From Perna viridis (Eukaryota), in contig CM074524.1 in NCBI GenBank assembly GCA_037379345.1, positions 24,424,750-24,488,749 of the forward strand: DNA of 64,000 nucleotides, in the 5' to 3' direction. Made by a program: the position numbers and the translations under genes. Under the pieces are notes generated by a model. It ran no database searches, was not told the origin of the DNA, and saw only the letters and a list, made by a program, of their open reading frames with translations. Shown here piece after piece: positions 7,501 to 53,399 of this stretch (positions are counted from its first letter, which is position 1; each line of letters opens with the position of its first letter).

Positions 7501-10500
7501 GAAGTAAAATGCGAAACCAATAAAACCACTGCCTCACATGTAGTCTTGACGTTTAAGAAAAACTACTGTGTTGCATTTTTTTCGACCCAATATAAATTTG
7601 GCTGGTTCTTGTACTTTTTTGTTTTTTTAACGGATTGGATTTAAAAGGATTTGTAAGATATTCCAATTTGATTGCAGTATGTAAGTTTCATGAATGTGTA
7701 TTATTCAATTGGGATATACTAGTAGTACTTTTGTTCAACATTTAGTACAGGAAATATTGGTCTACAATCAGACTAACATGGCGATGGATCGTAACAGATG
7801 CAGAGCATTACAAAAAAAGAAATAAATGAATAAACATTTTAAAATGTTCAACGTTACCAAAATATACTGTTAAAATAAACATTATTCATTCCTTGTAATG
7901 CACATTGTGGAACCTCTCGTTGTGTGGGTTTTATATCTGTAACTTCATTTTATACAATGAAAATAAGAGCGTTATATTCTAAATGGATATAGCTAATCAT
8001 TTAACTTGTAAACATGACATGCGCACGTGCATTAAAAGTAATTGTTCGACGCATAGAAAATAAAATAAAATTAGTACAAACTTTTACGTTTTATTCCTAC
8101 ATAAAAGCTTCGGCCTTGTACAAGCTGTATAGCCACTACGAGACATGTTTACACGTCTGTACATTTGCTATCGTTTTGTAATTTACCTGCAGAAACCATG
8201 GGTGTTAAAACAATGTCATGTGACAGAAATTGACCCCAAGCCATATGTTGTGCTGTCCTTTTGTAATCGAATATGTCGTGGCCGTGTGCATTACTAAGTT
8301 GATTGCTTATTATTCTCGGATTTGGAAGTTGATGATATCCTCGAGGCACGTTACAATCTGAATTTTAAAAAGCAAAACCACTAAGAGATTTTCTACGAAC
8401 TTTGTCACTAAAAATTTACATACAGTTTCTTGTAATACTATGTGGTGAAGCCGTATTATGTACGTTTCTCATTCAATATCAATTGACTCAGAGCATGAGT
8501 ACCTTGATTTGACGTGCAAAGGATGGGGCGTGCTTTTTTATAGGTTTTATCTTTTAACTACGTGGATCTTCTTCAGTCTTTCTACAATGTGAACTAATTG
8601 AGATCTTTTAAAGAGTGCTTAGTATCGTCTGTCTCTCCTTTCAGAACATCTGCGGAGAAATAAAACATAAAACGAAAAATAATACTTTAAGATGGTTTTC
8701 GATAGTATTATGTCACTATAAAATATTTGATATTCAACTACGATATATACTTTACCATCATCAAACTCCACCATTGGCCGACCACGTTTGTCCTTAAATC
8801 TTGTTTGAGGTGTTCCGGTCTGTCCCCATTCCGGATGATTCAAGTTGTTACAGTGTCCGTTTATAGTTCGGTATTTTTCATTTATATATTGTCCACACCT
8901 GCGATGGTGCCAACAGTGTACTAGAATATAATCGCAGAATATATGTACAGTTTACATAATTGGACTAATCATTTAATTTTGAACGTAAATCAAACGGAAA
9001 CAAGAAGTCACTTATGGAGAGGATCATAACCATTTGCCCATGAATCAATTGTTATAATCACATAATCATCCATTACATGTACTTCCTTAGTAATTACATA
9101 AAGCTCTAGATGATCAAATAATTATAAAGCGTTTTGTAAAGTAATCACATAGTACCTACAACAACAGTAAAGTAGTCATTAATCAAATTCTACATGTAAC
9201 CCCATATGAATGAGTCATCAAAGGAGCCAAGAATCTAGCGGAAATCAAAAGAACATAACACAGGGACAAAGGCTAGACATGGAAAACAGACACACACAAC
9301 AAAGAACATAAAATAATGCATACATGCTAACAAAAGTAAATGAGCAACTCGAACTAAGTACAGGGTAGACGGTAGAGGATAAGCTAGCCATTGTTATTAA
9401 TATAAAAAAGAGAAATGAACGTGTTGATAAGAAAAACAAGGGACTACAAAACTGAGATTTTGTGAAATCAATCAACGAGCAGCGTATATCATGATTTTGT
9501 AAATAGTCAAGATACTTATGGCCAAGACTTTTTATGTATATTTGTATCAGAAAATGCAAAGAAAAAGATTGGATATGCCGTGGGCTTCTTAATTTGTACA
9601 TGATCAAAGGACGGAAAGTTCATTAAACAAATGGCAACATAAAGACAAAATCCACAAAGTTGGAAACAGACGCAATGGTTCTTACTCAGTACAAATAAAT
9701 TCTATGGAAACATTATTTCTCCCGCTTCCATTACTGTAACTAATAAATAAAGGCGTTGTATTGCAATTGAAACAGGCAGCACAAAATCCTACCGGCCAGT
9801 AGTCAAAAAGGACACAAGATTTATTGATGAAATCATGGGTATACGTATGTAAGCGAAATGCTTTGAAAGATCAATCGAACTTACAGCAATGTATTTATTA
9901 CTAACCCAAGGCATTCAACAATTTTCGACTTGCATTGTGACAGCCTAAACCATCTCTGAATGCTAAACATATGGTGAAATTGCATTAATACAAATATGAG
10001 GAATGAACGACACGCACTTAAATCTTAGAAGTACAGGACCAGACAGACAGTGACACTGTCTTGTCTCTTGTTTACCTTTTCAAAAGTAATCAAGGTTATA
10101 GCGGCAATCAAAAGAACGCAATCCAGGGACAAAGGCAAGACATGGAAAACAGACATAGACAACAAAGAACATTGTTTTGCCAATGTTTTATTGACTAACA
10201 ATAGAGTTTTATCCTAATTATGATAAACAATTCCAGTACAATACAATATACAAAAGTGCGCCAATACGTGATTTAGCCGACGTCTATAATACGATTTTTA
10301 CCCGTCCAATACATCATATTGGCCTGGTTAAAATCCGTATTACCCTGGGCCAATATGCCTATTGGACTAATTAGTCAAAAAGGTATAATATCGCTCACAT
10401 GAAATAATTTCTAAGTGAAAGGTTACTGTGTTGGTCATATTGATATGCTTAACGTTAAATGTCTTTTAAGTATAAATACATTTATGGGCTTCAAAGGTTA

Positions 10501-18214: not shown

Positions 18215-21200
18215 ATGACTGACTTTCAGACTGGCTTAAAGGAATTTCTAGTAACGTTTTTCTATATTTTCGTGTACTGGATCCAAGCTGTCTTTTTTGC
18301 ATTCATTCCTGCAAGCTGGCGAGTCAAAGAAGTCGCAGGCGAAACAGTCCTTGTGACTGGAGCTGGTATGAGGTTTTGTGTTTATTTTATATGAGTTAAC
18401 GCTTTGTCAAGCAGGGACAGACCTATTTGTATTGAATTGACATGTGGTTATCTTGATAATGCACCGATACGTTGTGTGGCATGACTGCCTACTATTCCCT
18501 TTTGGGATTCAGTGATCGGTTGTAGTCAAACAAAAAAAAAGAAAAAAAATATCTCCAACACCTAATGCAATAAGGGGTTAGACGGCCTACCTGCATTGTG
18601 GTAGGTAGTGATATTTAAATAGCCAGTTAATTGACTTTGCTAAAGAATTAATTCTTGGTTTGTCCCTGGCTTGTCACCAAGGGGTCTAGAGTTTGATCCT
18701 CGGTTGGGGAGTATAATTTTGTTGGTCAAAATTTTGTGGCAATATTTATTTGTGTAAACACCAAAATGGTTATGGCATGTTCAGCACAAAAAATACAATT
18801 ACTAGAACTTGCTAAAAACAATAGTAGGTGTAAGACATAATACTATCTGGATGAAATCTGATCATGTGGAAATTATTTTCACATTAATTTTTTTCTGGAG
18901 GATATTATTTCACTATAATTCTAATCATGATATTCTTCATGCTTATAGCAGTTTTTGATTGGTCGAGAACATCTTTGACAGAAAGTTCATACTTGCATTA
19001 ACCTTACCAGATTGTTCATACATGCATGAGCGTCAGTCAACCTGAAACCAATATAGCGGTCGTGTAGTTCGAAAGAGTGTGGCAATGAACTAAAAGGGCA
19101 TAATATAGCCGTAAGAATAGTTTATTACATCCACATTGATTTACCGGTCAAGTTTGTTTACAAAGAGTAATTTTCAGCTCGGTGAAAGAAACTTATAAAT
19201 GCTTAAAATCCAACTACCAGTTAATTCGCCCCCAAATTAAATTATCCCAGAACTAGATTTTATAAATACATTGACCGGTTTAACTCATTTAAAAAAAAAA
19301 AATTCCCAAATGTCAGGATAGAATTATAAGGATTAAACAGCTGTTTTTGGTCGTTCATGCATGTATAAAAGGATCTCTCCTCTCACAAACATTACATGAA
19401 CTTCCTTCGGCCGTTCATTGAGTTTGGCACCTCCATGATCCATTCATCAGGGATTGATAATTCATAAAGCCTAATGCCCAGGACTAAAAAATTGAAACTC
19501 AGACTTGCCCTTTTTTACAATGAAATAATACTGTCAGCATGGCAATTCTAAAAAAAATAAAAACTCTTTTTTGAAAGATTTTGTTTTCATTATATGGACC
19601 ATGTTTCTCAGTCTATTCCCTGACATATAAATAGTTATAACTTTATTTTTAGAATGGGTATTCATTAGAACGATCTCCTGTAGGTTAATTATTCTCAAGT
19701 ATGAATCACACCTGTGCTTGATCAGGCACATTTTTTGACATACAACTAATTTTATTACTCAAGTGCTGGAATGATAAAGATCTACTTTCGTTGATAAACT
19801 TTTGAGAAAAAATATCATTGCTCAATTACAATTTCACAGTTAAAAAACCGCAGAAACGGAAAGCTGATGACAAAGCATTAGACCGGGAGACAGAATCAAT
19901 TGACACTGTGTCTTCTCCCCTGCAAACATAGAAATATACATAAGAATATCAGATAACAAAATCGCATTTATATATCTTACGATTGGGACTTGACAAAACA
20001 TTGTTTGGGCTTAGTGTACAAAAGATGGAAAAGTTCAGGGCTCGGGTCTTCCCAAAAAAAAATTCAACTCCTGTTCATACATGCATGAACAACTGAAAAA
20101 AGCTGTGTAATCCTATAATGAACAATTTTCCACACCTATTAAATTGTTTCCACAACATGTAGTTGAACAATGATATTTGCTATAATTTATTTAACAAAGG
20201 ATATAAGTTCATACTATACAGTATTAAATGATATCCAGAAAATAGTTCACATTGAGTGAATAGAATTCATAATTATACAGAGGATATTATTTCATACTAT
20301 TAAATAATATCCTGGATATAATTCATATATGAAGAGTGAACAGAACTGACTTACTCTTGATAAAATCCAGGAGTTAAATATAAACTTAAGCTAAGTTTAT
20401 TCATATAATATGGTATTTACATTTTGTAATGATGTCTATAAGAATTTTTTTTTTAAATCCATGTGATTAATCTGCATTTGTAATTTTTTTTAATACACTG
20501 AATATGTACTTCAAATTGGTGATATCCTGTAAGTGAAGGCTACAATACTAATTTGAATTTCAAACTCCTCCCTTAAGGTCCTGAATTTTGACTTGATGTG
20601 GACATTTTTTATTACTGAGGTATTGATCAATGTATATAAAATTTTTTTTCCAAAAACCATATATTGAGAGTATTAACCAACAATTACAAGACACTTAAAA
20701 AATTTAAGTGACGAGTATGATTAAATCTTGCCACGCGAGATACATGTACATGTACAACAAGAAAGCTTGAGATTCCAACCCTGTCTCATTATAAAGATCC
20801 TTGATAAAATGGATAATATCAATTAAACTATATCCTTGGTTAAAAACTACATGTAAAATATTCCATGAAATATCATTCAGGATACTTATTAATATCTGAA
20901 AACATCCTGGATGAAAATTAATATCTAAAAGCATCCTGGATAACACATCATATAAAAAACTATCCAAATCGTTAACACTTATAACACTATAAACTCTTTT
21001 TACTCCACAAAGAACCAAGCCTAACTTTTTTTTATAGTACCCTTAAAGAAAACCTTTTTCAGATACTTGTATGTTTAATCATCATGAGGTTGAGTGTGGA
21101 AAATATTTAATAGCTATAGAAAACATTTAACTATTATACAATTTCCCCTGATTAAATTTGATATTATTTTTTTTTTTCGGTGGTCAGTATTTCACACTGG

Positions 21201-24200
21201 ATACTCTTGGATGTTACATAGGGACATCCTACATATGTAGATTCTCTGTCAAAACATTGCTCAAAATCTTTCAGAAGTAAAGTCGGCCGTAAGGATGTGA
21301 TTGTTTGAACTTTTAAAGCACATGTACAGTGAGCATTATACACTACCATCAACCAAAATTGCTCTATTCTTCACAGTGGAGTTACTCATGTCCTCCACTG
21401 TGACTCCATCAGAGTAAACACTAAGATAAAATTACTCCATTGTAACTTTTCTTTTTTTTTTTTCTGTCCTTAACTGAGAAATATTATTGACTGCTAGAAC
21501 CATTAAATATACTTTGGTATAAAAACAGGACAAGTCAGTTATAGATAATTTTTTAAACAGGGACTCCACTGTGAGAGTGGAGACACTGTGACTCCCTTCA
21601 TAATATCTCCACAGTGGAGAGTAGAGACACTGTGACCCCTCCCCCCTCATAATATCTCCGCTGTGGAGAGTGGAGACACTGTGACTCACTCTTATAATAA
21701 CTCCACTGAGGAAAGTGGAGAAATTGTACATGTTTAGGTGTATTGTTACAGCCCTAATTACCGCCTCTTTACGTGAGGCCTGGGTAATATACAAAATGTA
21801 ATATAATAATGTAAATGTTAGTAAATGTTCATTACCAATTGTTCCCTGCACGAATTAAATCTCTTACAGTTCTTGGTTCAAGGAATACCTTGTTTTCCCA
21901 ATAATGAACTGACTATCCTATTTACTATTTCAAGCTCAATCTCAATAGTTTAACATTAATTTAGATAAAAATTGTGATTGACTGGTTATTTCAAATCCTC
22001 AATTGTGTCACAGGGTATGATGTTAACATACTATGAACCTTGTCTTATCCAGCTTAGGTTGATGAAGATTCTGCTTTCCCAAATTGAAAATAGGTTGTTC
22101 TTTAGTACGCAAATATTGAAAAATGAATAGAATTTTGTTTTCCTCCAGGAAGGTATAATTTACCTTTCACTTGTCTTAATGGTATACATGTATGTAAGTT
22201 TCACTTGTCCTGAGCAATAGGATAACCTTTGAAGTCTTAACCTGTGTCAAGTAAAGTTTATGTCACAAGAAAAAAAGTTTTGTAATGTTTTGATTTGAAA
22301 AAGTTTTATGGGATAATTCAGCTAGGAGTTTGGGACATATGGTTATGTGGAGCAGTCTGTTAGACTTTTTATAGAATTTCTTTTCAAATCTTTTACTTGT
22401 ACATGTATCTTAACGTATCAAATTATTGAACTTATTTTAATTGTATTTAGTTCCTTTTATTTTCACTTTAAATATTTACTGTTCATTACTGATTTTACCA
22501 ACTTTGTACTGCCTTTTGTATTGTAATATACTGGAAATTACTAATAGAAATGGAAGCGGGAGGTTTAGCGTGCTGTAAAACCAGGTTTAATTTTTTAACC
22601 CACCATTTTCGATGGAAATGACTGTACCAAATAAGTCAGGACCATTCCAACTTTGTAGTTTTTCCCTTGATGTTGACATTTGTAATGCAGACTTTCCTTT
22701 TTGATTATCCTTTTGATTTTTGCTAAGAATTGTTTGTTAATTTTGTTATTATCCTTCAATCAGTTTGTTAATTTTGTTATTATCCTTCATTGACTTTTAT
22801 ATGAAATTATTTTTCAGGCAGTGGTATTGGTCGACTAATTGCTGTTCGGTTTGCAAAATTAGGTTGTAGACTGGTCCTTTGGGATGTCAATGAACAGGGT
22901 AATGAAGAAACGGCATTGCAGATTAAGTCCTTAGGAGCTTATGTCAGGACATTTCAAGTTGACTTAAGTGATAGGGAGGCTATCTATGCTGTAGCAAAGA
23001 AGGTAAATATAGTCATATTTTGAACTTTACTGGACACAGTTTTATTGATACCTAAAAATCCAAGAAGGGTTTATACATGTCTTTTTGTGAGCATTCTCAG
23101 AGCTATTTTTCTATTGCTTAAGTGTGTTCTTCAATACATCAAAATCTGTGAAATTCTTAAACATTATTTTTAGGTTTTACAATGTACACAGGTTGAAAAT
23201 GATGTAGGTACTTCAGAACATGGCAGCTTGCTTGGCTACTGTGATTTTAGGGTGTCCCAATACCAGTCTTAACTTGGTATATAGTGTCTTCTGGAAATTC
23301 TTTTAAATATAAATTGATTTTATATTTATAGATTTCATGAAGGCTTCTTTGCATTTAAAAAGGATTACTTTCCGTGAAGCAACTGAATTTGTCATTAGAA
23401 GGAACCATAAAAACTACAACAAATTATGCCCTATATGTATTTTAAAACAGTACCAGTATAGTAAGAAATGATTCAGGACAGTTTTGTATGGAAAAATAAC
23501 AAAAGAACACACAAGGGGAAGTCCTTGGGGAAAAAAATAATACCATAACATCAAAAAGACAACATGAGAATACACAGTACAAAACAAATTAAAACAACCA
23601 AATAAGTATGGACAGAAACAGCAGGACCTCAACGCCAGGATACGGACTCAGTTAATTTGGAAGGGTGAGCAGTTCCTGTGTCTTGTAAGACACCTGCTGT
23701 GTTACTCCTGGAATGCCTAGTCCAGTTATTTTGTTTTCTTTTCATTTACAGACCAAAGAAGAAGTTGGAGATGTAGATATTCTAGTCAATAATGCAGGAA
23801 TTGTCACGGGGAAAAAGTTTTTGTCTTGTCCTGATCATTTGATCCAGAAAACTATGGAAGTCAATACCATGGCTCATTTCTGGGTATGTATTACTTGTTC
23901 TCAGGGGATCAAATATACTTTTAAGAGTAGAAGGTCCTGGACTTTTTTAAGTTTCAAATATCAATAGTCCCACTGGAAGAAAAGCAAAAGTCCTCTGCAT
24001 AAGGTTAATATTCCAGGTCTTAAATTAATTAATGTCAAAGGTTATAAGTCAGAAATTGATGGTCCTTGACCTTGGACCAACACTAATTAGAACAGCTTAT
24101 TCCTAAGATTTATCAGAAGGAAGGTGATGTCCAGTAAAATTAGGTTTGATCCTGTGAATATTTTGCATTTTTTTTTCATTACATGTGATTTAATTACTCA

Positions 24201-27200
24201 AATGAAATATCAGTTCAGCCCTAATTTCCCCATATACACATATTTCAGACTAGAAAATTAGGAAAGGAAACATTTTGTAGACCTTTTCTTTGTCAGATAG
24301 GAAGTACATTGTGGTATAGGGAGCCAGAAAAAAAACAATGGAATGTTACATTTAAAAAACTATCAAAAATATTTGATCTCTCATCTCCACCTTGAACAAG
24401 TACTTTTGCATTGTTATGTACTTTATAAGTAGATTTTTTTTTACCCCATCACTAAGCTATACACAACAGAAAGTGTTGTATACAATGGATTCATAGAAAA
24501 TTCATATGTTAATTCTTATGACTATTTTTTTTTAATAATTACATGTTTGTAAATTTATTTGGGACACTATTTCATAAAAAATGATCATGGGTAAAGTTGG
24601 TAAATATAAATAAATAAAATGGTGTTTTTTCAGCATTTTCCATTTCTCTGATCAATTGTTTCAACCACTGCCCAATTCTTACAGGAACTCAGGTATCACA
24701 ACTCTGTTTTGAGTCAGTCTCTATAAGAATCAGGCATGATATGAAATAACCCATCAATTTGACAGTGTCACTAATTGTAAAATGAGTTATAATTTAAATG
24801 AACTGCTCTACAAAGTAACATTCATTTTAAGGGCAGATAACTCAGTCAAATAATAATTTTGTAACATTCTAATAAAAGATCAAAAAGGAGTCACTTCAAA
24901 TAGAAAAGACTTCTTTGATTGAAATTATATTGTCAGATCAGATGGTTTTTGACTTGCATGTTTCTGATTTTCCAAATATGCCTGATTCTTACCAAGGCAT
25001 GTACTCACATATTGATAAGTGAGGTATTACTGTAATTTCAATTTATTTTTATTTATAGACCTGCAAAGCCTTCTTGCCTGGTATGATGGAGAGAAATCAT
25101 GGTCATATTGTAAATATTGCTAGTTCAGCTGGGTACCTAGGTGTGAATGGACTTGCAGACTATTGCGCTAGTAAATTTGCTGCAGTTGGATTTGACGAAT
25201 CACTTCGATTTGAACTTGAAATGATGGGAAAGGAAGTAAAGACCACAGTTATTTGCCCTTTTTACATTAATACTGGGATGTTTGATGGTGCGAAAACTAG
25301 GTAAGAAGTACAATGCTGGGAAGCTAGGTCTTATATGATTAGATGATTTATTGATTGTTGTCTTTTCATCATCTGTTATCATCTAGCTGCAAATACTTCA
25401 TTCATATCCAAGAGGAGAGATTAGTTGAACAAGGGTCAGTTGGTAATATAAAATGAAAGCAGGGTGCAATGGAAAATAAATAAAAACCAGTTTGGGACTG
25501 ATATCGTAAAATGGGAGAAATGAGTAAGGGCTGAAATTTTTGCCATCTCTAATGGCTACTTGCAGCCTTCTCTGACAGAACTCTACTGATAAGGTCTTTT
25601 TAATACATGCATTAAGCGTGACACTTTCCATACATGTTAGCCCTTTATGGTTCATAGTTTTTCTACAAGGTCATGTAAAGTCCCCCATGCTTCACTCTTA
25701 GTTCCCTTCCCTTTATAAATAAGACATATAAAACGATAACCAGACTACTTTACCCTCAGTCCCCAACTCCAGAAATTCCTAATTCTTGATCCCACACATT
25801 CCCACTTCCTTCCCCTTAACTCCTGTGTAACCCATCCCTGTGTCTACCATATTCCTTTAATATAATTAGTTACAAAATTGAATTAAGAAATAAGTATACA
25901 TCCCATTCAGATATAATAGTTTGTTATTGCATGTACAAAATAATTCAAATTTTCTTGGTACATTTTCTTGAAATGAAGAAACATCCTAGTACCTTAATTT
26001 AAATATCATATTGAGACAGTCGAGATCCAGATTGAGCTGATACTCTTTACTTTTTGAACTTTTTTTGCCTCGAAAACAGATCCTACTCAAAAAGAAGGGA
26101 TACTAAAACTGCTTCCAAAAGTTTATAGATTAAATTATATTAGCATTTTTTTTTTTTTCTAGGTTTCCTTTCATCTTACCCATTTTACAACCTGAAGATA
26201 CAGCCAACAAAATAGTAGATGCTGTTCTGTGTAACCAACATGTAGTTCTGTTACCAAAGAGTCTGTATTTCTTCATGGCGTTGAAAGGGTAAGTATAATA
26301 ACCTGTAAGCTGCCTTAAAGTTTTTCTTCTAGTGTAGATGTAAGCACTTCTCTGTCTAAGAATCAGGGATAGGAATTACTCTGAGGAAAAATGACAGGAA
26401 AGTTTTCCCTCTCTTTTTTCTTTTATAAGCACTAAAATAATATTATGTTACAGATGTGTCAGTATAAATTTTAAACAGCTGTTTGTTTTCTAGATATATT
26501 GAATATATATGAGGCAAAAATGACCAAATTGGAAAAACCAATGTGCCACCAATTGCCTGGTTCTTATATAGACTGGTACCTAAAGCTTTTTTTTAATCAA
26601 TTCATGTATCAGTAGTTGGTACAGATATGAAGGTCTTCTATACAGCTATACCAAGGCCTTGATTACACACTAAAGAGTACCTCAGTGCCATTCCTTGCTT
26701 ACACATTGAAGAGTACCTCATTGCCATTCCAAGAGTACCTCAGTGCCATTCCTAGAGTGCCCCGTTGCCATTCCTAGAGTACCTCAGTGCCATTCCTAGA
26801 GTACCTCAGTGCCATTCCTTGCTTACACATTGAAGAGTACCTCAGTGCCATTCCTAGAGTGCCTCGTTGCCATTCCTAGAGTACCTCAGTGCCATTCCTA
26901 GAGTGCCTCGTTGCCATTCCTGGAGTACCTCAGTGCCATTCCTAGAGTACCTCGTTGCCATTCCTAGAGTACCTCATTGCCATTCCTAGAGTACCTCAGT
27001 GCCATTCCTTGCTTACACATTGAAGAGTACCTCAGTGCCCTTCCTAGAGTACCTCAGTGCCATTCCTGGAGTACTTCATTGCCATTCAGGTTTCATAATA
27101 AAACTCATTAAAAGGCCCTGCTTTGTTGGATTCCTTTATTTCTATCTTCAACTTAACTAATGTATCTTTAAGTTTTTTTTATGAAATCAGCACCATATTT

Positions 27201-30200
27201 TTTTTATTTCACCTAAATTTTGTTTTTGAGGGGCAGAAGTTTCTTCATTATTTTATACATGGTGTATACATGTACAAATATCAGTGTTAAACAAATATGA
27301 ATAATCAGATGATGATGAACTTACCCTTGTATTGCCAAACTTAGATTTCAGTTTAGAAATTATAAAAGGTATTTCAGACAAGCATATTTCTGCCACATCT
27401 CTGGGGATGTTAATCTTCTGTTCTTTTCTATACATGCTACATATTAAAGTGACTAATTACATGTATATTTTTGGTGATCATACAATGTATGTTACTCGGT
27501 TTGTCAATAATCATATGCAATTTCTTATCTAAAAATCAAAGGCTTTATTCCTATATCTTTTACATCTTGGCCACACTCGGTACTTAACCTTATCACTTTT
27601 GCAAATTAGTACAGTACCTTTGATTTCAACTTGGTAGTGGTCATGCCTTGTGAATTTCTTCATCCCTATATAAGGAATTTCACTATTTCCCAAACTATTT
27701 AAATACTGGTATATAGCAGTTCTTATATATTTATGTATAGAATACTAAACTGACATTCTTTCATATTTCAAAAAGAAAATTAAGGGTCATTTGAACTCTT
27801 TTTGGTGTAAGATTAAAAAAAAACTAAAATTCCATTTCATTTCCATAGAACACTTTCCTGCCAATTTTCTCCCCTTTGAAATAAATTTTCCGCCATTTAT
27901 CTCCAATTGGAAGAGGCTTTTTTAGGGGTTGTAATTATACCTACAAAGTTTTATGTACAAAATTGTTTAAGATAATTATATAATTTGAATAAATAATTTT
28001 TACATCATTTTAAAAAACACTATTAGTTACTTGAAATGTATATGCCTGTATGACTTATCGTCACTATGCAAGATCATAGAAAAAAATATGTTACATAATA
28101 GGTGATCTACCTGAATTCTATTCTGTCTATAAGTCCCTTTGCCTGTCACACTATTTCTAATAAAGGTTTTCTATACAACCATTTGTAGTATCACTTACTT
28201 AGTATGTTCATTTTACACTTCAAGTATATAAGTCTGTCATTTCATGTGATGTGATTTTTCACTTTTTCCTTCTGTTTGACTGTTTTCTAGCATTAGATAT
28301 TTAATGTTTAAGATTTTTGTAGAAATAGTTTGCAAAAATTAGAGTTGTCTTCACTCAGATGAAAATAATTCTGTTTCAAAATGAATTAAATGGATGATCT
28401 TCATTAAAAAACAGTAAATACCAGTATGTGGTCTTTTCACTCACAATTTTTTTTCCTGCACAGTCTTTAGGAGGACATCTACTTAGTAGCATGCCATAGT
28501 TGTACATATACATGTACTATCTTATATGGAAATGATTTCTTATTTATACCATATGTGCATGTATCCTTTATGTAACTTTATCAACCATTAATTATATGCA
28601 TGTTCTGTATATTTGACTGACATTCATATCCATAGTATGTTTACATTGTATTTCAGAGTATTGCCTGTTAAATGTCAGTTTGTAGCCAGTCAGTTTTTAG
28701 GTGTCAGTAATTTTATGGACAACTTCAAAGGGAGACAACCAAAATCAGACTGAAGTTGTCTTTTATCTAGGTCAGTCTTCTGCATTTTGACCTTTGGCCT
28801 AGTACACATAATATAGTTGCTAGTTCTCTTGTAACTTTCTGCTGACTAATTTGGAGTTCATAGTGCATCCATTACAAACAATTGAAACTGCATGTTTTTT
28901 TATATTAATCAGATTATATTATATTGATCTAACCTGTCATATGGCATGAAAAAAATGCAATTTTGAACAATGTTTTTTTTATTTTAAATTCTTCTATATC
29001 TGAAAATGCTATGAACAGTACTAATATTGAAATACTTTGTAAGGTATCTCACTTTGGTGTTAGTCCTAAAAATTACTCAAAATTTAAGTAGTACTCCAGA
29101 TAAGAATCATGCAAAGTGTGATTCATGGTTGGAAAGCCTACATAATTTTATTTTTGATATTTTTTTAAAATTTTATAATAATCAGAAATTAACATGTGGC
29201 TTTTCATAAAACCCTTGTTTTAAGAAGATAAAAATTATAATAAAGCACTTTGAATTTCAAAAGTAAGGGAGATAACTCTTTAAACGACACTAAAATACAC
29301 AAGAAACTGTTGGATTTTCAATGTGGATTATCTGCCAAGAGCAGACAGACTGGAATGGATAATTATACATTTCATTATATAGACCTATAAAGCAGCATAA
29401 TAACAAAAAATAAAAATGTGTAGCCTTCTTAGGAGTGTGTCATAATTAAAACAGACTTTGCAAGATTATTACAAGACTACCACTTAATTTTTCCCTTAAC
29501 ACCTCCCCTAGAAATTTATTGGCCATACATATTGCTTCACTATTTCTTATTTCCATTGGACTGATTGTTATAAACATACTTATGATACCAAGCTAAAGAT
29601 GTCTTATTATAAATCAATTAATTATGCACAATTAAAGCACTATGCAATACCTAGCATAATAATAATTTTTCCCTCACTGTTTTATGGTGCAATCTTATAA
29701 TCTGTAAATTGACTTAAGATTAACCAATGATTTAGTTATATGATGAGAATAGGTATGGTGTATATGACAAAGAGACAAAAACCCCACTGGGATGAAAATG
29801 TCAGCCCAAGGCCACACATTGGTCTTAAATGTACAACATCATCATACACAGGCACAGCAAAATAGTTGCCCCGTTATACTCAAGTAACATAAAACATTGA
29901 CTAAAGGTGAAAACTAAACAAGACATGCAGGGAACAGAAATTCTGACTTGGGCAGGCACAAAAAATGTGGCAGGATTTAAGTGTTTTGGTGTAATCACAA
30001 TCCTTATAAAATCTGGCAGCTGTGGAAAAGTATCACTCAATTAAACACATCTAAAAAACAGTTAAAAAAGGGTCTGAGTCCCTTGTTACAAGGGAAATTA
30101 AGAAACTGAATATAAATTACACAAATGTATAAACTAACAACTACTAGCAGTTTACTAACATACCAGTTCTAGACCAGTTTGAACCTACAAAAAGTTATGT

Positions 30201-31223
30201 TCCTATTGTATGTAAAATAAATCCCAATTCTTCCCATACTGGGTTGAGAATCTTGGTACATCATAAGCCATACAATAAAGACACAACCCAAGTTATGCCA
30301 AAAACTGTTTTTAAATGTAGCGTTTTAATTTCTATGTAAAGACCCTATTAGCGAAACAATGTTAATATAAAAAAATGACCATAATATTACAACATTTGTA
30401 TAACTATATCCCTTACTAATGATCCAATTCAACTAATTCAATAGTTTATATATATTATTATATAAATATATATTTCCAGAGTCAGGAAGGGATGGTCCCT
30501 GTTTTGTTAAAATTTTGTGAATTTTATTCTAAAACTGTGCAAAAATGATTAAATGATAGCCTGGAAACATCTCCCTTTATATAATTAGCAGGTTTAAAAC
30601 TGAAATCCCTTTCATGAATTTATTTCTAAACCTGACCCAACAAGAAACTTCTTTGTACTAAGTATCATTAAAACCTGTAGAAATTTGATGCTTCTTCCTG
30701 TCATCCTTGTGTTACCATGGATTTTATTACTTTGTTTTTGTGGCCTTCCTAAGCTTACTTGAAGGTGTGTTTACACTTATTGAAGACCTTTTGTAATCTC
30801 TGTAAGTATTTACTATTTTTATAGGGGTTATACGATTGTGCATTCCTTGTATTTCACTATATCTGTTCTTTTTTGTATTAGGAATGAACATACTAGTATA
30901 ACTTCAGGATCAAGATGAATACAAGTAGTTGCATTGCAACATAATTGGTGATTGGATAATGAAATTATAATAAAAAAAAAAAAACATTAAACCACCACTC
31001 AAATCTTCATATCTGAAACAATGATATTCTCATCTTTTGTTTTCTATTTCAGACTGTAAACTTGTAAGTTATATTAATTCTGTCTTAGAGCATGTAACAG
31101 TTTATTTTTATTTTTTTATTTTTCAGAATTGTTCCTACCAAAGTACTTTCTCTTATTTGTCTGTACTTTGGAGCTTCTAACTCAATGGATGACTTCAAAG
31201 GAAGACAGAAAAAAGTTGAATAA
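18215..31223 (+). CDS. SDR16C5: SDR16C-family short-chain dehydrogenase/reductase (epidermal retinol dehydrogenase 2-like), 310 aa, two alternative last exons
   Basis: Exons 18215-18365, 22818-23002, 23752-23883, 25059-25300, 26163-26288, then 28657-28753 or 31127-31223. All are GT-AG and phase-consistent (933 nt). N-terminal hydrophobic anchor, TGAGSGIG Rossmann motif, LVLWDV (Asp suggests NAD(H)), NNAG, IASSAG, YCASK catalytic motif, [10 protein letters not shown]. The symbol denotes the closest family; orthology is not established. Confidence 0.93.
21341..21725. mobile_element. Truncated copy of the CACTA-terminus MITE family with internal ~45-bp tandem units
   Basis: TA|CACTACC start and colinear similarity to 43417-43738. 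GTGGAGAGTGGAGACACTGTGACTC-type unit repeated 3 times. Confidence 0.65.
26660..27087. repeat. 22-bp minisatellite (~17 units) with periodic 14-bp spacer, in SDR intron 5
   Basis: Unit AGAGTACCTCAGTGCCATTCCT; TGCTTACACATTGA is inserted three times. Confidence 0.95.
28657..28753 (+). CDS. SDR alternative terminal exon 6a (..[31 protein letters not shown])
   Basis: TTTCAG acceptor, 97 nt, correct phase after exon 5, homologous to the SDR16C C-terminus. Confidence 0.85.
31127..31223 (+). CDS. SDR alternative terminal exon 6b (..[31 protein letters not shown])
   Basis: Long T-tract + TTTCAG acceptor, 97 nt, same phase, ends in KKxx. Confidence 0.85.
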
Positions 31224-32133
31224 ATGACTGCTTACTCTGACTATATTACCAGTGCCTTAGATTTTTATATGCTAGGTTAACATATTGTCACACCTTGCTA
31301 ATAAGATAACCTCTCTTCACTCACAGCTAATCTTTTATAGGTTGATTAGGTTTTATTCAATTGTATTATAGCACATATAGTGATGATGTTCCGATGATAG
31401 AGTTGATTTTCTCTTGATTAATAACCATCCTCAGATTGGTACGGTGATTGACATGATAGTTCAGAAGGAGATGGCATCAATAGAAAGTTTAAGTGCCCTT
31501 ATTTTTTCACTTATAAATACATGTACCTAAGGCAATTCATTGGAGGATTCTTATTTAATCAAGAGAAGACTCTATATATCCCATTAGCATCATCATTGTA
31601 ATCACTATCGGAACTAGGTTTTTCAAAAAAAATATATTTCTTTTTCATCAATTGGTAACGCTAGCTGTTTACTGATTTTATGTTTAGGCATACGGGCTTG
31701 ATGATGTACATTAAATAGAATACATGTGAGACTGTTTATGGTTTTTTATGTGTTATTTTAAGTGCAGAATCTTAATGAATAAGAATAGCCAAAGAAATTA
31801 GCCATTTAACTGCATTTATGAATGTTCCACTTAAAATTACCACAACAGCCATGGTGCCCAATTTAATACTTTCCATAGGGAATACATTGGACTATTCCAG
31901 TTCAATAAAGTAAAAGTCATGCACAATTTGTTGTAATTGTACAAATACACATAATATTCACAATTTCAGATTTCTTACCCTTTGAATATTACAAGCGTTA
32001 TAGAAACAATGTTCTTGAACCATTTTATTCATGTTGTATGGAATGGTGTACACAATTTATTTTGTTTGGAACCATGTGATATATGTAGTATTGAACCATG
32101 TGACTTGTGTAAGATGGAACCATCTGATTTATA

Positions 32134-32361
32134 CAGTGAAACCTGTCTGAAGTGACTTTCTAAGTTAGAGAAAAACCATGGTAACACAATCAACCTGTTT
32201 TAAGTGACCTTCCAAGAGAGTGCAAAATCATGGTCACGTAAAACAGGGGTATTTACATGTATATATAGTTAAATTTCAAATAAAATGCATAAATAATAAT
32301 ATTTCAAATACAGTCTTTTAAGACAGGTTTAAGGATGGTCACTGATAGACAGGTTTGACTG
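32134..32361. mobile_element. Tc1/mariner(pogo)-type MITE
   Basis: TA|CAGTGAAACCTGTCT ... AGACAGGTTTGACTG|TA, with TA TSD. Confidence 0.8.
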
Positions 32362-32806
32362 TATTGGAACTTACCAGTATATTCACAGGCAATGCAGTTG
32401 AATGGGTTCTTTCTATGAAGTGGTCAAAAATCTTGGACCCTAGGACCCCCTTTTTTTATGAACCCCAACTGGCACTCCTCTTTTTCAAAGTATCTGGATC
32501 CATCACTGCTATTATTAAATTGTTAAAGTGTTTAAATTGAGCTGAGTTTGGTTATATTTCATTATGTGCATAGTGTAGGTTACTTTATGGACATGTTTCT
32601 ATACATGTACCTGTATTTTTTATTTCTGGGTGATACTAAATTACTAGAAATTTGTAATCAATACCTCATTAGCTGTTATCAGTTTTGTAAATGTTAAATA
32701 TATCATAAGATAATTAAGCTGTATAGATAAAGGCCATAGTTTGGACATGCTGCTATGGTGTTAATTAACAGCAATATTTCCATGGATAAATATTTTTCTT
32801 AAATTA

Positions 32807-33177
32807 CAGTGAAACCTTTTTAAGCAAAACCCCTTTTGGACCTGAAAATGTTTTTGGTTTATACAGGTATTTGGTTTACCAATTAAGGCTCAAAATATAT
32901 TTAAGTAGTAGTCTTTGTAAGAATCATGCAAATTCTGTTATATGTGATACACCCCAAAAAAGGCTACACATTTTTTTTATTTTTGTTACTAAGTTGCTTT
33001 GAGTTTTAAAGTTTGAAACAAAATATAAAATTTTAAAATATGTTGACTTTCCAACCATGAATCACATTTTGCACGATTCTTATCTGGAGTGCTTTTTATC
33101 TATTGATACATGTATAGAGTGACTTTAAAAAGTCTGGTATAGACAGGTTTTAGGTTTGGTTTACACAGGTTTCACTG
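32807..33177. mobile_element. Tc1/mariner(pogo)-type MITE with a nested AAGAATCA-family element
   Basis: TA|CAGTGAAACCT ... AGGTTTCACTG|TA. Nested element at ~32905-33093. Confidence 0.75.
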
Positions 33178-36100
33178 TATTTTAGTTTGTTACACCTGTG
33201 CCACATTTAATTACATGGATAACAATCTACAAGTTAAATATGATGAGGGATTGTCAAAACTTATGTTATCATATTTCTGTAGACAATTATTGATACTGGT
33301 GTAATTTCAATAATTAGTTGAGGAGTCAGAAAATTCATTGATCATGTTGATTTTATATAACAAAACAACTAACAGGTGATTCATAGCAAATTAAAGCTGT
33401 CTGTGTATTAAATTTTACCGATGTTTCTAATTGTTCTATAAATTGTTAGGAGCTAAAACTCCTCTGTGTCATAATATCTTTCTCCATTAATTTGTAATTT
33501 AATATCACAGTAAAAACTGTCTAAAACAAACCTTGAATAATCCTAAAATCTTCCTAAACCATGCAGTTTTACAGTCCTTTTTTATAAATTTGTAAGTTGT
33601 ACCTTCTGAAGCCAAACTGATTTTAAAATACAAAAGGGGTTCCATATAGAGAATAGAAAAGGAAACATATATGGTGAACCACAACAAATGCACCATTATA
33701 TAACCCCTATAAAAAATAATAATTACAGAGATGAACAAAAGGTTTTGAATAAGTGTAAACATTTCTTCAAGTAAGCTTTTAAAGGCCAGACAAAAGTAAT
33801 AAAATCCATGGTAACAGAATGATAACACTCCTTCCAATAAAACAGACTTCCTTGTATTTTTACTTGCAAACTCCAACAATTTTCTAAGCCTCATAAATTA
33901 CATTTTTATTAAAGGACTGCTATTTTAAATACCTATTAAAACAATATTGAGGATTCTGTGCAAATTTCTTGGAAAAGCCAAATTGTAGTTTTTAAATCAG
34001 ATGGGAGATTTCAGTAGCAACCAGTTGTGCACCAATGCATTTAAAATGACTAGGCCTAAAAATATGCTCTGCAATAAAGCTTTTGTTAACCACTTGTTGA
34101 TCTTAATTAAGCTTAACTGTTAAGTGTTAGTATTTGTAAGAATCAGGCAAAATAAGAAAAATCAGAGAAATGCATGTCAAAAACCAACAAATCTGACAGT
34201 GTAATTTCACTTAAGGATGCTTTGTCTATTTGAAAGACTACTATTTGATCTCTGCATCACTGGCTTTGCTCACAAATTTTTCAATACAATGTTTGAAAAA
34301 TGAGGTTTTTAACCGAGTTATCTGCCCTTAATGCGATTTCAAACTATTCTTGGGCATTAGAATTAAGTACAGATACTCAAAGAACATATTTGCACATAGC
34401 TTAATTCATCATAGCATATTTTGACATCATTGTTATAACTTTGGGTTGACGCAGACTTTAGATGTGAAGGTTGAGCAGCAACATTTTGCCCCTTAATCAA
34501 TGGTTAAATATGAGAAGATTGTAAACTGGAATCAATCATTTTTTTTGTTTTCATCAAATGGCATATCATTCTTTGTTTAGATGTTGTACCCCTCGTGGAT
34601 ATCTTATAGCACTGACAGGAAACCATTTTATATCAAATATTGATGATGTATCATAATAGTTATAATGTATTTTACTTACTTGCACTACACCAAAAAGTGT
34701 ATAATTTCCACTGTAACTGATTTTAGGTAAACAAATACCTTCTTTCACAGACAGTATTTCTTTTCATTATACCTTCCATAAAAAATTAAACTGTGATGAA
34801 TCTTAATGACTCAGTCCATCAGTATTTTGATATTTACTGGGTCTTCACCATCGGACTTCATTTTGTTTATTTTTCAAAAAGTAGGAAATAGGAACAAATT
34901 ATAGGAATTATGGGTAAAGTATGAAAAAATACTGAATTCTGTTTGTTCAACCTGCAGCTTTTTATGCTGCTGTTAAAAAAATAGGAAATAAAAGAAAATC
35001 CTGACTGCACCACAGACTATATAATGGTTTTTGTAAGAGAGATATATATATATATTGATGTCTTAAGTCATTAAATATAACAAAAATGGATATAGTTAAT
35101 ATGTCAGAGACAACAACTGTGCCGAGATAAAATATATGTTGTCAGCTCAAGACTATTGAAATATGTTATTTTTAATTATTCAAAACTATTTAAGCAGTGA
35201 AGCTTTTAAATTTGCTATACATTCTTTCAGAAATTAACTTCTTTGAATTTTTATTTTTCAACAAAAATTTGGGGCTAATTAGTCCTCGGAGATATTCAGT
35301 TGGTCAGGAAAAAAAAATCATTTGAAAGTCTTCGCCTGAAATACAGTCTTAGCAAAAGTAGCTGGATGGTAGCATTTGAAGGACTTTGATAACCAAAATG
35401 GTTTTTAAACAGTCTGTGATGTTGTGGATACTATATTCTCACATTCTAATCTGATAATTAATACTGCAGACGACTTTCACTACCAGGTGGTGATTAAATC
35501 TTGCAAGAGTTTTCATGCCATTTAAAGTATCAAAGTTTAATACAGATTTTATGGGAGAAACAGATTCTCCTCCAATGCTTTAGGAGATTACAAGATTTCT
35601 CCACTCTCGATAGTCAAATTTTAGAATCAATTATATCTAGTGGAGAAATTTTGTAATCTTGTCGAGACCAAGGAGAATCTACAGTTGTTTCTTTAATCCA
35701 TGTAATATGCTGTATATCTAGTATATTCATGGTATACTGTAAATACTTTTCACTCCTTGCAGTAGGGAAATTGTCAGGTCCAAAACTATGTTTTATAGTG
35801 CAAATGTATATTATATATCCTTTGCAAAAGTTAGCGACTGTGAAAATAAATGTTTGCAGTAATTGTATGTTTCAATCAGTATTGATAGTTATTTTATTAT
35901 TGATTATTAAATTATATTTTTTGCAATAAATTTGATTCATTAGTTTTTTTTTATTATTGTTTTTCTTTTACCCTGCCTTTGTAATGTGACTACAAATACA
36001 TGCAAGTGTAAGTTTTATGTAAGAATCAGATTTGTGCATGTCAAAAACCCACGGATCTGACAATATAATTTCAATGAAGGATGCTTTCTCTGTTTTAAAA

Positions 36101-48559: not shown

Positions 48560-50800
48560 AGTGTTAAATTTCTTTTTCTGAAGTAATTGCAGTGAATAGA
48601 ATTGTAAGCGATCATGATACCACAACAGTATCACTGACAATACCCTATAACTTTAAAACGTCATATCAAAGAGATGTATAGATTTATAAAAAAACGGTAA
48701 TTTTCATGGATTTAACGACAAAATTGACAGTATTAATTGGGATGATTTTTTTATGGTATCCCAAGATGTTGATGTAAGACATCAAATTTTACCGCTAAAT
48801 ATTTAGAAATTGCCAAGGAGTTCATTCCCTGCAAAAAGGTTACAATTAGACCTAACGGCAAACCATGGTTTGACTCTTCAATCCGTAAAGAAACGAGAAT
48901 TCGTGATCGATTTCACAAGCAATTAAAAATCAAGAAAACTCCACAATTAAAAGCAAAATACAAGCGTTAAAGAAACGAAGTCGATAACTTGATGTCATAT
49001 GCTAGGGAACAATACCTAATAAATGCAAATGAACTCGACAAAGAAAATAAATCCAAAATCCTACTGGAGTTTAGTTTTAAAAAAAAACGCAGAGGTGAAT
49101 ACAAAACTCTCCTCCCCTCATAAACAATACAGGTGAATTCATAGTAAATGAAAAAAAGGCAAATCTGCTAAACGAATTATTTTGTTCGATATCCAACATA
49201 GACAATTCATCCCATGACCCACCACATTTTGGAACTCGTTGTGTAAATAATCTAGATATTGATTAAATTACCCCAATGAAGTTCAAGATGATCTTGAGAC
49301 GCTACAGTTAAGCAAAGCTACTGGCAATGATTGTATTAGCCATCATATGTTTAAATATACTGTTTCAAATGTATGTCACCCCCTGTGTATTATATTCAAC
49401 AAATCACTAAGAGATGGTAAATATCCGTCCACCTGGAAATCTGCAAATGTACTAGCTCTTTTCAAAAAAAGGTTAAAATCAGATCGCATTAATTATAGAC
49501 AAATTACATTGTTAAGTTGTGTTGGAAAAGTCTTCGAACGTATTATTTACAAATATACGTATAACTTTCTGTTAGATAATTCCTTAAGTAATTTACCGGT
49601 TCCAATTTGAATTTATGCATGGACACTCTACAGTTCATCAACTGATTGAAATTTATCATAATATTAATCTCGCTCTTGAAATGACACAAATTGTGTGCAC
49701 TGTTTTTTGTGATATATCGAAAGCGTTTGATCGAGTTTGGCACAAAGGCTTAATTCAAAGGATAAAGGCATATGGTATATCTGGAAATTTATTAAAATGG
49801 ATTGAAAATTACATGGAAAACAGGAACCAAAAGGTATTGATAGGAAATTAGCTATTAGATATAGGTAATATTAAAGGAGGTGTTCTTCAAGGGTCAGTGC
49901 TAGGACCCCTTTTTTCTTATTGTATATAAATGACAATACCGCTAGTCTATCCAGGTTATTTGCTGATGATACATCACTGTCATATGCCCCCAGAAATATA
50001 AATCAAATTGAGGAAAACATAAACTCAGATTTAGAAAAAAATAAATAACTGGTGAAAAAAACTGGCTAGTAAATTTTAATCCCTAAAAAACAGAATATTT
50101 GTTAATTTTCTACCAATAGGCAACTGGATAGACCAAGTATTAGATTCAATGATCAGTTGATTGAATGTGTTAAAAAACATAAACACTTAGATGTTACATT
50201 TCATTCAAATTGTAAATGGGTTTGTCATATTCAAAATAAAGTAAATACCGCTTCCAATCAACTTTCCATGCTGCGTAAATTTAAATTTATTCTTAGCAGA
50301 CAGAACCTGGAAAAATTTACTTTGCCTGTATTGTACGCTTCTTGGAATATGCCTGTGAACTTAGGGATGGTTGTACACAAAATAATATGAACAAAATTGA
50401 ACGAGTGCAACATGAAGCTGTAAGAATTGTCACTGGTCTTCCAAAATATGCAAATATTGACTCCTCTTTATTTTGAAACTGTTTGGGAAACCCTTCAATC
50501 TAGAAGGAAAAGAAGAAAACTTTGTTTGTTTTATAAAATTCACCATCAAGATTGTCCATCTTATCTCAATGACTGTTTATCACCGTATCAACAAGATGTA
50601 AGGCAAAGAAACTTGCGAACTGATTCTGACTATCGGCAACCATTTACATTTACACTTATTTTCCAACTTTTTTTCCCGTCCGAGATTAGACTTTGGAACA
50701 ATTTGGAATCAATATACGTAATCTTCCAACCATTTCTAGATTTCACAAACTGGTCAAAGGTGGACTACAGTTATTGGGATAAAGCCTCATCTACATACGT
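48560..50800 (+). mobile_element. Decayed CR1/L2-clade LINE, ORF2 (APE C-terminus + reverse transcriptase), 5'-truncated
   Basis: VSDHD, KPWFDSSIRK, KANLLNELF, WKSANVLALFKK, NYRQITLLSCVGKVFERI, FCDISKAFDRVWH, GVLQGSVLGP, LFADDT, LQSRRKRRKLCLFYKI, FFPSEIRLWNNL; many stops and frameshifts. Confidence 0.93.
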
Positions 50801-53399
50801 CTTGATTCAGATGTGGATTTTTAAAGTTATTTGAAGTTATTTGAAGTTATTTTAAGCATACACATTTTTATATTATCTGATAAGTTCACGTTTCTACATG
50901 ACAAGCTTGATACAGTCTTACGTTATCTAAACCTAAAAGACAGCATTCAGACTATTGCATATCATCCAATCACCAACTCTTAATTTTTATGTTTAAGTAT
51001 TGAAACTTATCTTAAGTCAGCGAAATGAATAATGAAAAAACGGATTACTATTCTTCTATTCCTATCTAAGTTTTAAAACCTCATTATCCATTCGGTTTAC
51101 ATTTAACTGTACATGTTTATCTTTTGTTTCACGAGTGTTACTGATGGTTGCAATGTTATTTTAATTTATTTTCTGAATTCCATTGTTCTACAAAGGTTGA
51201 TCAGAAATATAGTCTCAAGAAAAACAAATGCTTGACATGTTGCAGCTAGATACGCCCGCAGAGGTAGATATTTCAACAGATGGGACAAAAATGGACACAA
51301 AGTTCAAGCTTGAAATAACTCCTTTTTATTGTGACTTAATATTTAAAACATAGAAAAATGTAAAAAGTAGCCTGCATGAATAATAACAATATCAATAATT
51401 AAACGAAGTTTAATGAAGTTTGCTTTTAAAATTTTGAAATAATTGTGCAGTTATGGAAATCCATCCTTTTTATATTAATAAGGCCCCAAAAATTCAAAAA
51501 AGGAAAATTAGAAATTCAAAACAATAGAAGAGGAAGCCAACTTTAATAGTAAGTTTAATGAAAATGGGCGCAACCACTACTGAGTTATAGTCAGAAACAG
51601 TGCACTCCCAATATTTTATGAACAAAATTCCGTAGCTCTTTATCGTAACAGCACAAAATTGACAAAAAATAAAAAGGAGCTTTTATCCATAAAAGTAATA
51701 TAGTATGTTCATTTCGCTCATTGTTTTTAATGCGGCGCAATGTGCGGCACCCAATGCGCATGACATCACATCCGGTGGCCGTGAACCGGGAAGAGGACAG
51801 GAAGTGAACCTTGGGTGACTGGAAATGGACTTAGATGGGGACCCTTGACCAGTGAATGGAACATAGGGACTCTTGACCTAGGATTTGGCATTAAAGGTGG
51901 GGGTGGAAATGACACACATGAACCCCCTTCAGTGTCCTAATTGGTGTTATCCAATGGTGTAGTGTTTTATAAACAGTAAGTAAAAAGGGGAAATTATTAA
52001 AGCCATCTTTCTTTGTATATTTGGTTTGCTTTGTTAATACATTTTTATTATTTTTAATCACCTATTTTTTATTTGATATTTTGTATGAAATGAAGTTTAA
52101 TTATCATTTAAATAATATATATATTTTTTTACTTTATTGACCTCAGTCGCTTGCATTTTTTTCAATTATGTATTGCACTTTATGAATACATTTATGTTTT
52201 TGGTGAAATGTTCACATCTCGGACTTATGACTTTTTTCATTCACTTGTTTTAAATATTGTTGTGTAATGCAGTTGTTTGTTTGTGATTTAGTTTTCTTTG
52301 TGATAACCTTAACTGATTGTGTAATTCAATATCAATACTTAAGTAGATGTCTTTAAATATGTCCATTGTATTGATTTGTTGTCGCTTTAAATTGTACATT
52401 ATGAATAAATAGCGGTTTTCAGGAGATTATGACATCTTCCCATGTACAATATTTACAACTGGGAAATTTAACTTTTATCAAATTGTTTTAATTATTTTGG
52501 TGTAATTATATTGCGATGTTCACATGTACGTGCACTCAACTCATCTGTATTATAGGGCTCTTGACTTGAGGATTATGTTTCTCTCCACTTCGTCCATTTG
52601 AGGCTTGTTTTGACTCATTTGATTTTGTTACTTTCTATGTATGATTTTAGTTACTTTATGTTCTTTGTTGTGTATGTCTGTTTTCCATGTCTGGTCTTTG
52701 TCCCTGGATTACATTCTTTTGATTTCCACTATAACCTTGGTTCCCTTGATTACTCTTTAATAAGTGTAGGTATGGTTGACTGTTTAATGATATGATGAGC
52801 TTGCATTCGATTCTAGGGGTACAACTATATCTTAATTTTTTCAATGTTTACATGTCGCTTATACTCAACATTTTCATTTTTTATTATAGGTAAACTTTTT
52901 TTCTGACCCTAGGTATGGTTCGTGCAGTCTAATATTTTTTATATGTAATCTGCACATAAACTTGATTTGATCCGTGTCATGGGGCTGTATTGAGTAAACA
53001 TTTGTCTTGAGGATTTTATTTTTTACTCCATATTTTCATTCGTGGTATGTTTCCTACCCCATTTTTTGTTTAAATGTAAGCCGACCTTGTATGACCGTTT
53101 ATATGTCACCATCACACTTGATTTGACCTGTGCAATAAGGCTCTATTGGGTAAAGATTTATAAACAGTTTTTATGTTTGATTTGCTGTCGCTAACAGTTT
53201 TTCTTATAGTTGTCACCGGTTTTGAATAATCGAAGTCGAGGTACCTTATTTCATATGGAGGGGGTAAGTCTTTCTTTATTAGTTTTATTACAGAACAAGA
53301 ATTTCATTTTCTTCTATGTTTAATTTACAATTTATATTCATTGTTCCAATCGTTTTGAAGTTGTCTATTCTCCTGCATATTGTGTTTATATTTCGCAAT

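Follow-up and report, generated by a model that had tools for sequence, protein, structure and literature searches.

The 64,000-nucleotide window analysed here comes from the green mussel Perna viridis (assembly GCA_037379345.1, 723 Mb; contig CM074524.1, here C14, positions 24,424,750 to 24,488,749 of the forward strand). It contains a gene of the short-chain dehydrogenase/reductase (SDR) family SDR16C (RDHE2/dhs-3-like), in which five common coding exons are followed by two last exons of 97 nt that are homologous to each other, referred to as A and B. The common exons total 836 nt and give an open 310-residue protein with either last exon. Four sequencing runs from four studies were mapped as contigs; their RNA status is assumed, and their GT..AG joints behave as spliced RNA. 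The introns between the five common exons are all GT..AG, and each is a contig joint in 4/4 runs. All exons lie on the plus strand. Coding exon 1 (18215..18365, with RNA contigs reaching to ~18149) holds the start codon, the N-terminal hydrophobic anchor helix and the first half of the TGxxxGxG motif. Exon 2 (22818..23002) encodes the remainder of this Rossmann motif and Asp73, which aligns with Asp67 of human HSD17B13, the residue that selects nicotinamide adenine dinucleotide (NAD). The NNAG motif and Asn150 lie in exon 3 (23752..23883), and exon 4 (25059..25300) holds the catalytic Ser178, Tyr191 and Lys195 and the beginning of the substrate loop. Exon 5 (26163..26288), the last common exon, encodes the first helix of a membrane helix-turn-helix. 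Its donor, which lies in phase 2 after c.836, in Gly279, serves exon A and probably also exon B.

The spliced protein scores above the cut-off for the adh_short domain and holds G49/G53/G55, N125-G128, N150, S178, Y191 and K195, all of which are invariant in 73 homologues. Its sequence places it among the classical SDRs, in family SDR16C, with the catalytic and cofactor motifs intact. The core is identical to those of three Mytilus species at 234-240 of 279 residues, and the closest protein records carry the names SDR16C5, epidermal retinol dehydrogenase 2-like and dhs-3-like. Asp73 and this homology point to an NAD+-dependent retinol/steroid dehydrogenase, located at the endoplasmic reticulum (ER) or on lipid droplets.

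Exons A and B are tandem-duplicated last exons of this one gene, probably used as alternatives. As the initial annotation had described, they lie 2.5 kb apart and share phase, stop codon position and 13/31 residues; both follow an AG, and at the nucleotide level 55/97 positions (57%) are identical. The coding part of exon A (28657..28753) encodes residues 280-310, ending in QPKSD, and that of exon B (31127..31223) encodes the same residues, ending in QKKVE, with the lysine codons at 31209-31214. Exon A scores 68 against exon B, whereas the next best of the 127,814 ungapped 31-codon frames of the window scores 31, and the match is also found by tblastn (E 1.3e-5). A profile made from 61 tails finds exactly two copies in the window and no third. 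Searches of the window found no second copy of exons 1-5 either, in agreement with the earlier statement that no other SDR exon is duplicated, and the flanks of exons A and B show no alignable similarity.

Both last exons are transcribed. The joint 26288>28657, which leads to exon A, is present in 4/4 runs. Exon B and ~1.8 kb downstream form a single contig that starts at the acceptor in 4/4 runs; the contig of the core stops at the shared donor. In P. viridis exon B is probably spliced to the exon 5 donor, and B-type spliced proteins are on record in relatives. Contig depth was 3.9-85 for the A joint and 13.5-71 for the B contig, figures that were not used for ranking the isoforms. The stretch 28754..29035 is the first part of the likely 3' untranslated region (UTR) of isoform A; one low-depth contig (28775-29035) is seen there in 1/4 runs among the pieces listed. 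That of isoform B (31224..32928) is transcribed over at least ~1.7 kb, as contigs run from 31128 to 32903-32929 and stop at a dispersed repeat. The acceptor of exon A is the weaker one (pyrimidine content 0.60), and that of exon B is strong (0.85). The AATAAA hexamers that had been cited behind each exon lend them no support: the window contains 224, against 189 ± 14 in shuffles, which is near chance, the hexamer at 29239 sits in a dispersed repeat, and the exon-B contigs extend ~1 kb beyond the one at 31904. The stop codon of exon B itself falls inside an AATAAA hexamer (31219-31224), and the contigs continue past it.

That both exons are open despite their divergence had been taken as a sign of selection. 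They are indeed open, but this is weak evidence, as 16% of neutral simulations also stay open. Between exons A and B the proportion of synonymous differences (pS) is 0.71 and that of nonsynonymous differences (pN) is 0.37, and 0/20,000 neutral simulations kept both the frame and five scaffold residues. These five were picked from tail pairs that include the pair of the window; in 73 rows that leave this pair out, three of the five are likewise invariant. The pS and pN values and the simulations together show purifying selection on the exon pair. Exon B is identical at 27-28/31 residues to the Mytilus B tail (28/31 in M. galloprovincialis) and at 21-22/26 to scallop tails. Exon A matches its M. 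galloprovincialis counterpart at 16/31 residues, against 234/279 for the core (Fisher p 1e-4), and changes faster than exon B (Fisher p 0.0016). At the level of sequence, exon B is conserved like the catalytic core and exon A is faster-evolving.

Protein records from other species contain similar isoform pairs, in which the exon border at the break was deduced from its position; cluster members were tabulated for 30 of the homologous proteins found. Isoforms with identical cores that differ only from residue 277-283 onward are present in 13 named species. These are four Mytilus species (M. trossulus with 4 tails, M. galloprovincialis and M. edulis with 3 each and M. coruscus with 2), the oysters Saccostrea echinata, S. 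cucullata, Crassostrea virginica and Magallana gigas, the bivalves Mya arenaria and Dreissena polymorpha (two near-identical genes with two tails each), the cephalopods Octopus sinensis and O. bimaculoides, and the brachiopod Lingula anatina. Two further transcript sets also hold pairs, one from a mytilid and a cuttlefish-like one with one additional core difference. The A-type tail is annotated in four Mytilus species. Two of the four M. trossulus tails differ by three residues, and the exon therefore seems to be still duplicating. One mytilid protein carries an unrelated tail after the last common exon, likely from intron read-through. Records of scallops, Ostrea, Pinctada, unionids, gastropods, a chiton, annelids, cnidarians and three vertebrates show a single tail per gene, which may reflect absence from annotation and not from genomes. 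A search with the Mytilus A-type tail region returned 5 candidates and added nothing. Together with the pS and pN values and the simulations, the isoform pairs bear out the proposal of an old, selected exon duplication within one gene.

In a tail tree (51 rows, 26 columns) the A tail of the window groups with Mytilus A tails (support 89/84), and its B tail with B-like tails of mytilids, scallops and oysters (86/80). This grouping means that the exon pair arose no later than these mytilids, and probably earlier. The brachiopod/mollusc split is Cambrian. Approximately unbiased (AU) tests on 32 rows and 26 columns left all five groupings unrejected (p 0.106-0.508), tail phylogeny being low in power at 26 columns, and are compatible with one origin or several. 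Venerid clams have two genes, each with one tail type. The cores of these genes group together (97/94), and the tails side with the two isoform types of Mya and Dreissena (100/97 and 81/81); a single clade of venerid tails is not rejected in an AU test on the 26 columns (p 0.106). Venerids thus likely sorted two isoform tails into separate paralogues after gene duplication.

Next, we considered what the exchanged segment encodes. HSD17B11 and HSD17B13 are the closest solved relatives, top by sequence and by fold. The AlphaFold models used (predicted local distance difference test score 92) are those of the A- and B-type isoforms of M. galloprovincialis, not of the proteins of the window. HSD17B13 is the best match of the A-type model (Foldseek E 1e-33); against its structure 8g84, residues 22-307 align with Z 37.3 and a root-mean-square deviation of 3.0 over 276 aligned residues. 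[quoted passage not shown] In the alignment of the window protein with HSD17B13, Gly279, Pro282 and Gly294 correspond to Lys271, Pro274 and Asn286 (chain numbering one higher). The last intron has the same position and phase in the two genes (human c.812, phase 2, codon 271; mussel c.836, phase 2, codon 279). The human donor is the one hit by rs72613567, at c.812+2 (PMC11096111; PMC8776652 contains a statement on the exon-6 donor). In HSD17B13, as described in PMC10449848, the second of the membrane helices is P274-N286, and residues N286-K300 obstruct the substrate site. The same source describes single-leaflet anchoring, mainly by the N-terminal helix, with the tail held in the pocket when this is empty, and an effect of this C-terminal segment on protein stability. 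IsoD, an HSD17B13 isoform without this helix segment, is reported to show no estradiol oxidation and to oxidise leukotriene B4 (LTB4) like the wild type (PMC11697577). Across 12 tail pairs, the scaffold of P282, M299, D300, F302 and G304 never differs, whereas the helix and lid positions 283, 286, 288, 291, 298 and 301 differ in 10-12 of the 12. Exons A and B of the window differ at 18 residues, 15 of which lie upstream of the last four.

We propose that one gene with one donor and two homologous last exons makes two 310-residue proteins with an identical 279-residue core. Residues 280-310 are predicted to form a second helix that lines the substrate pocket and a peptide that plugs it. Exon choice would depend on two competing acceptors, a weak proximal one that has its own 3' end and a strong distal one. 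If the mussel segment acts as in HSD17B13, exon choice would swap the pocket wall and the lid, a reading that draws on the HSD17B13 alignment, the structure papers and the fixed scaffold with its variable helix and lid positions. We lean towards the view that this changes substrate preference or activity, which is the most likely outcome because the segment corresponds to the second pocket-lining helix and plug and because IsoD loses estradiol oxidation. The swapped piece likely tunes the lipid accepted more than cellular location. The enzyme itself would oxidise a lipid alcohol (retinol, sterol or oxylipin), with NAD+, at the surface of the ER or of lipid droplets. Of the two lids, the conserved housekeeping one is likely that of exon B and the diversifying one that of exon A, together with the extra Mytilus copies; a trafficking difference via the last four residues may accompany the switch in some lineages. 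Pairs persist in 4/16 isoform sets where both tails share the terminal motif class (one mytilid, Mya and the two Octopus), and Mytilus retains 2-3 tails other than KKxx, all with KxD/E at the end but with differences in the helix. The initial annotation had suggested that alternative last exons switch localisation or substrate. Alternative use is supported, and the HSD17B13 alignment, structure and IsoD data agree with a substrate effect; localisation centred on KKxx is not well supported.

Several observations weigh against a substrate or activity switch. Similarity to HSD17B13 fades past residue 294, and the hydrophobicity and moment of the helix show no consistent A/B pattern across pairs. 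The models derive from one mixed alignment and are Mytilus proteins from which no contacts were read; for this reason the plug role rests on homology, as does the step to substrate or activity. Of the two junctions that were to be compared, 26288>28657 was recovered in every run, and 26288>31127 is missing from the joints listed (some joints at repeats were dropped) and is therefore counted as inferred. Finally, the class of the terminal lysine motif differs in 12/16 sets (the second tails of oyster and Dreissena have no such motif at all), which also fits a trafficking role. Under such a localisation switch, signals for coat protein complex I (COPI), KKxE for ER retrieval on B and KxD on A, would mainly relocate one enzyme, with the KxD of isoform A giving Golgi residence, weaker retrieval or freer access to lipid droplets. 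Alternative last exons can alter membrane targeting; those of KRAS 4A/4B reportedly act as a targeting switch. The lysines of the B tail at -4 and -3 are found in 7/7 mytilid sets with a B tail, the close relative included, and the last four residues are the part that is unstructured in both models. Among 157 distinct family tails, a redundant set that includes non-animal rows, 138 have lysine at -3, which makes this residue a trait of the family; 104 end in KxD/E and 40 in KKxx. The claim that KKxx is on one isoform only holds literally, as B ends in KKVE and A in PKSD; both tails, however, match KxD/E. This motif is bound by COPI and keeps proteins in the Golgi (PMC4642860), so that isoform A is not signal-free. 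The dilysine difference is on/off in just 6/16 sets, 5 of them from related mytilids, and is not conserved across orthologous pairs. In one mytilid both tails carry KKxx, and in Mya and both Octopus the two tails share a motif class. KKxx was defined on type I membrane-spanning proteins (PMC2120234) and both motifs were shown on membrane-spanning cargo (PMC2120234, PMC4642860), whereas HSD17B13 is held in a single leaflet with its tail in the empty pocket; the SDR16C tails are candidate signals by sequence match. A localisation switch also leaves the 15 upstream differences and the extra Mytilus copies unexplained. We consider it unlikely as the conserved core of the system, but a live rival or a lineage-specific addition.

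The selected difference might instead lie in the 3' UTR or in the protein stability that comes with each exon, giving control by tissue, stage or stress, with the coding parts only keeping the fold. Each exon carries its own UTR, the acceptors differ in strength, exon A drifts faster than the core, and the homologous segment influences the stability of HSD17B13 (PMC10449848). This regulatory explanation is nevertheless improbable, as a UTR switch requires no duplicated coding exon, exon B is as conserved as the core and far closer to scallop tails than to exon A, and the tail types are kept across genera and seemingly sorted between venerid paralogues. The faster change of exon A, the 2 to 4 copies in mytilids and the single tail of scallops and several other groups could also be expected if exon A were a redundant copy under relaxed selection, reached by leaky splicing and without a function of its own. 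The excess of pS over pN, the failure of every neutral simulation to keep frame and scaffold, the joint to exon A in all four studies and the annotation of A-type tails in four Mytilus species largely refute this already, and we give it very little credence. It is scarcely conceivable that the two exons reflect part of a second gene or a duplication made in assembly, even though whole-gene tandem paralogues occur in gastropods and venerids. The window contains no second copy of exons 1-5, the nearest paralogue is ~8 Mb off with its own single tail, the exon copies are just 57% identical with unrelated flanks, one core contig terminates at the shared donor, and pairs with identical cores are on record in the 13 named species.

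That paralogous SDR16C gene, at 32.48-32.50 Mb on C14, has only one last exon, behind the same last intron, with one tail within 30 kb around it. The tail profile found no tail copies around a distant paralogue on C12. Within the window, exons of an animal haem peroxidase (PF03098) lie upstream of the SDR gene on the minus strand (3649-4293 and 8622-8951), and a Sushi-repeat exon of a neighbouring gene lies at 62700-62981, also on the minus strand. A broken remnant of a reverse transcriptase like that of long interspersed nuclear elements (RVT_1) spans ~48770-50830 in several frames, and scraps resembling reverse transcriptase or endonuclease, recognised from translation only, lie near 243-701, 53.3-54.5 kb and 58.3-58.9 kb. 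A 22-bp tandem repeat with higher-order units (26657-27087) lies in the intron that separates exon 5 from exon A. Pieces of a dispersed repeat lie behind exons A and B (29080-29490 and 32900-33090); they are partly mutually inverted, have very high contig depth from other transcripts and could pair in the pre-mRNA. Inverted copies with 81% identity (30699-30873 and 33657-33827) flank exon B and its UTR, and a contig that joins them across strands is probably a repeat effect.

The kind of event described here is well known, and this case is apparently undescribed, although the isoforms are already present in automatic annotations. A literature search, with subscription journals outside its reach, found no paper on this SDR16C exon pair, and the main text of an SDR gene-structure survey (PMC9859523) has no match for mollusc, alternative or last exon. 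A wider scenario is also conceivable, if rather doubtful as a whole: a lophotrochozoan cassette of interchangeable SDR16C lids, either maintained over some half a billion years or invented anew several times, in which the exon lost in the liver-protective IsoD has been duplicated two to four times, is spliced to switch lipid substrate and COPI signal together, and was sorted into separate genes in venerids. The physiological substrates of SDR16C lipid-droplet enzymes, including HSD17B13, are open, and the human data indicate that this segment decides substrate use. Under the wider scenario, the isoform pairs would amount to lid swaps made by nature, with which the SDR16C pocket can be studied, and would hint that molluscs have a regulated switch for retinoids or sterols. 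Matched pairs with the same core and 2-4 intact lids in more than 12 species make the role of the segment directly testable, and the gene is a candidate for a point at which bivalves and cephalopods control how they handle retinoids, sterols or oxylipins. The venerids would add an example from invertebrates in which splice isoforms have apparently become separate paralogues.

Separation of splice isoforms after gene duplication has been described by Abascal et al. 2015 (PMC4494069). The venerid case is alike in that the paralogue cores cluster and each tail joins one Mya/Dreissena isoform type. That study concerns vertebrates; the venerids are known here from protein records, in which second exons may be hidden. 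A proven substrate switch by homologous exons is that of the mutually exclusive coq-2 exons of helminths, molluscs and annelids (PMC7434440). They resemble the mussel pair in being homologous exons of equal length, in their occurrence in molluscs and in an origin that may be single or repeated. The coq-2 exons are internal and belong to a prenyltransferase, whereas the mussel exons are last exons with their own stop and UTR and a predicted function. Among human substitutions derived from tandem exon duplication, 77/236 are C-terminal and most are old, according to the Martinez Gomez/Tress set (PMC9741552). In that set, too, homologous tandem exons alternate and swap a C-terminal region. Its main text names no dehydrogenase or SDR, and its swapped regions tend to avoid ligand sites, whereas the mussel region is predicted to line and plug the pocket and its copy number reaches four in Mytilus. 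The closest likeness is to the human HSD17B13 last exon and IsoD (rs72613567), which share family, fold (Z 37.3), intron position and phase with the mussel gene (PMC10449848, PMC11697577). The closest records give the mussel protein the name RDHE2/SDR16C5-like, and the likeness to HSD17B13 is not a claim of one-to-one orthology. In the human enzyme the pocket is lined and plugged by this segment, which also decides between estradiol and LTB4 (PMC10449848, PMC11697577). It is single there and is lost by a splice variant, whereas the mussel has two copies of it and exchanges one for the other, an intact homologue.

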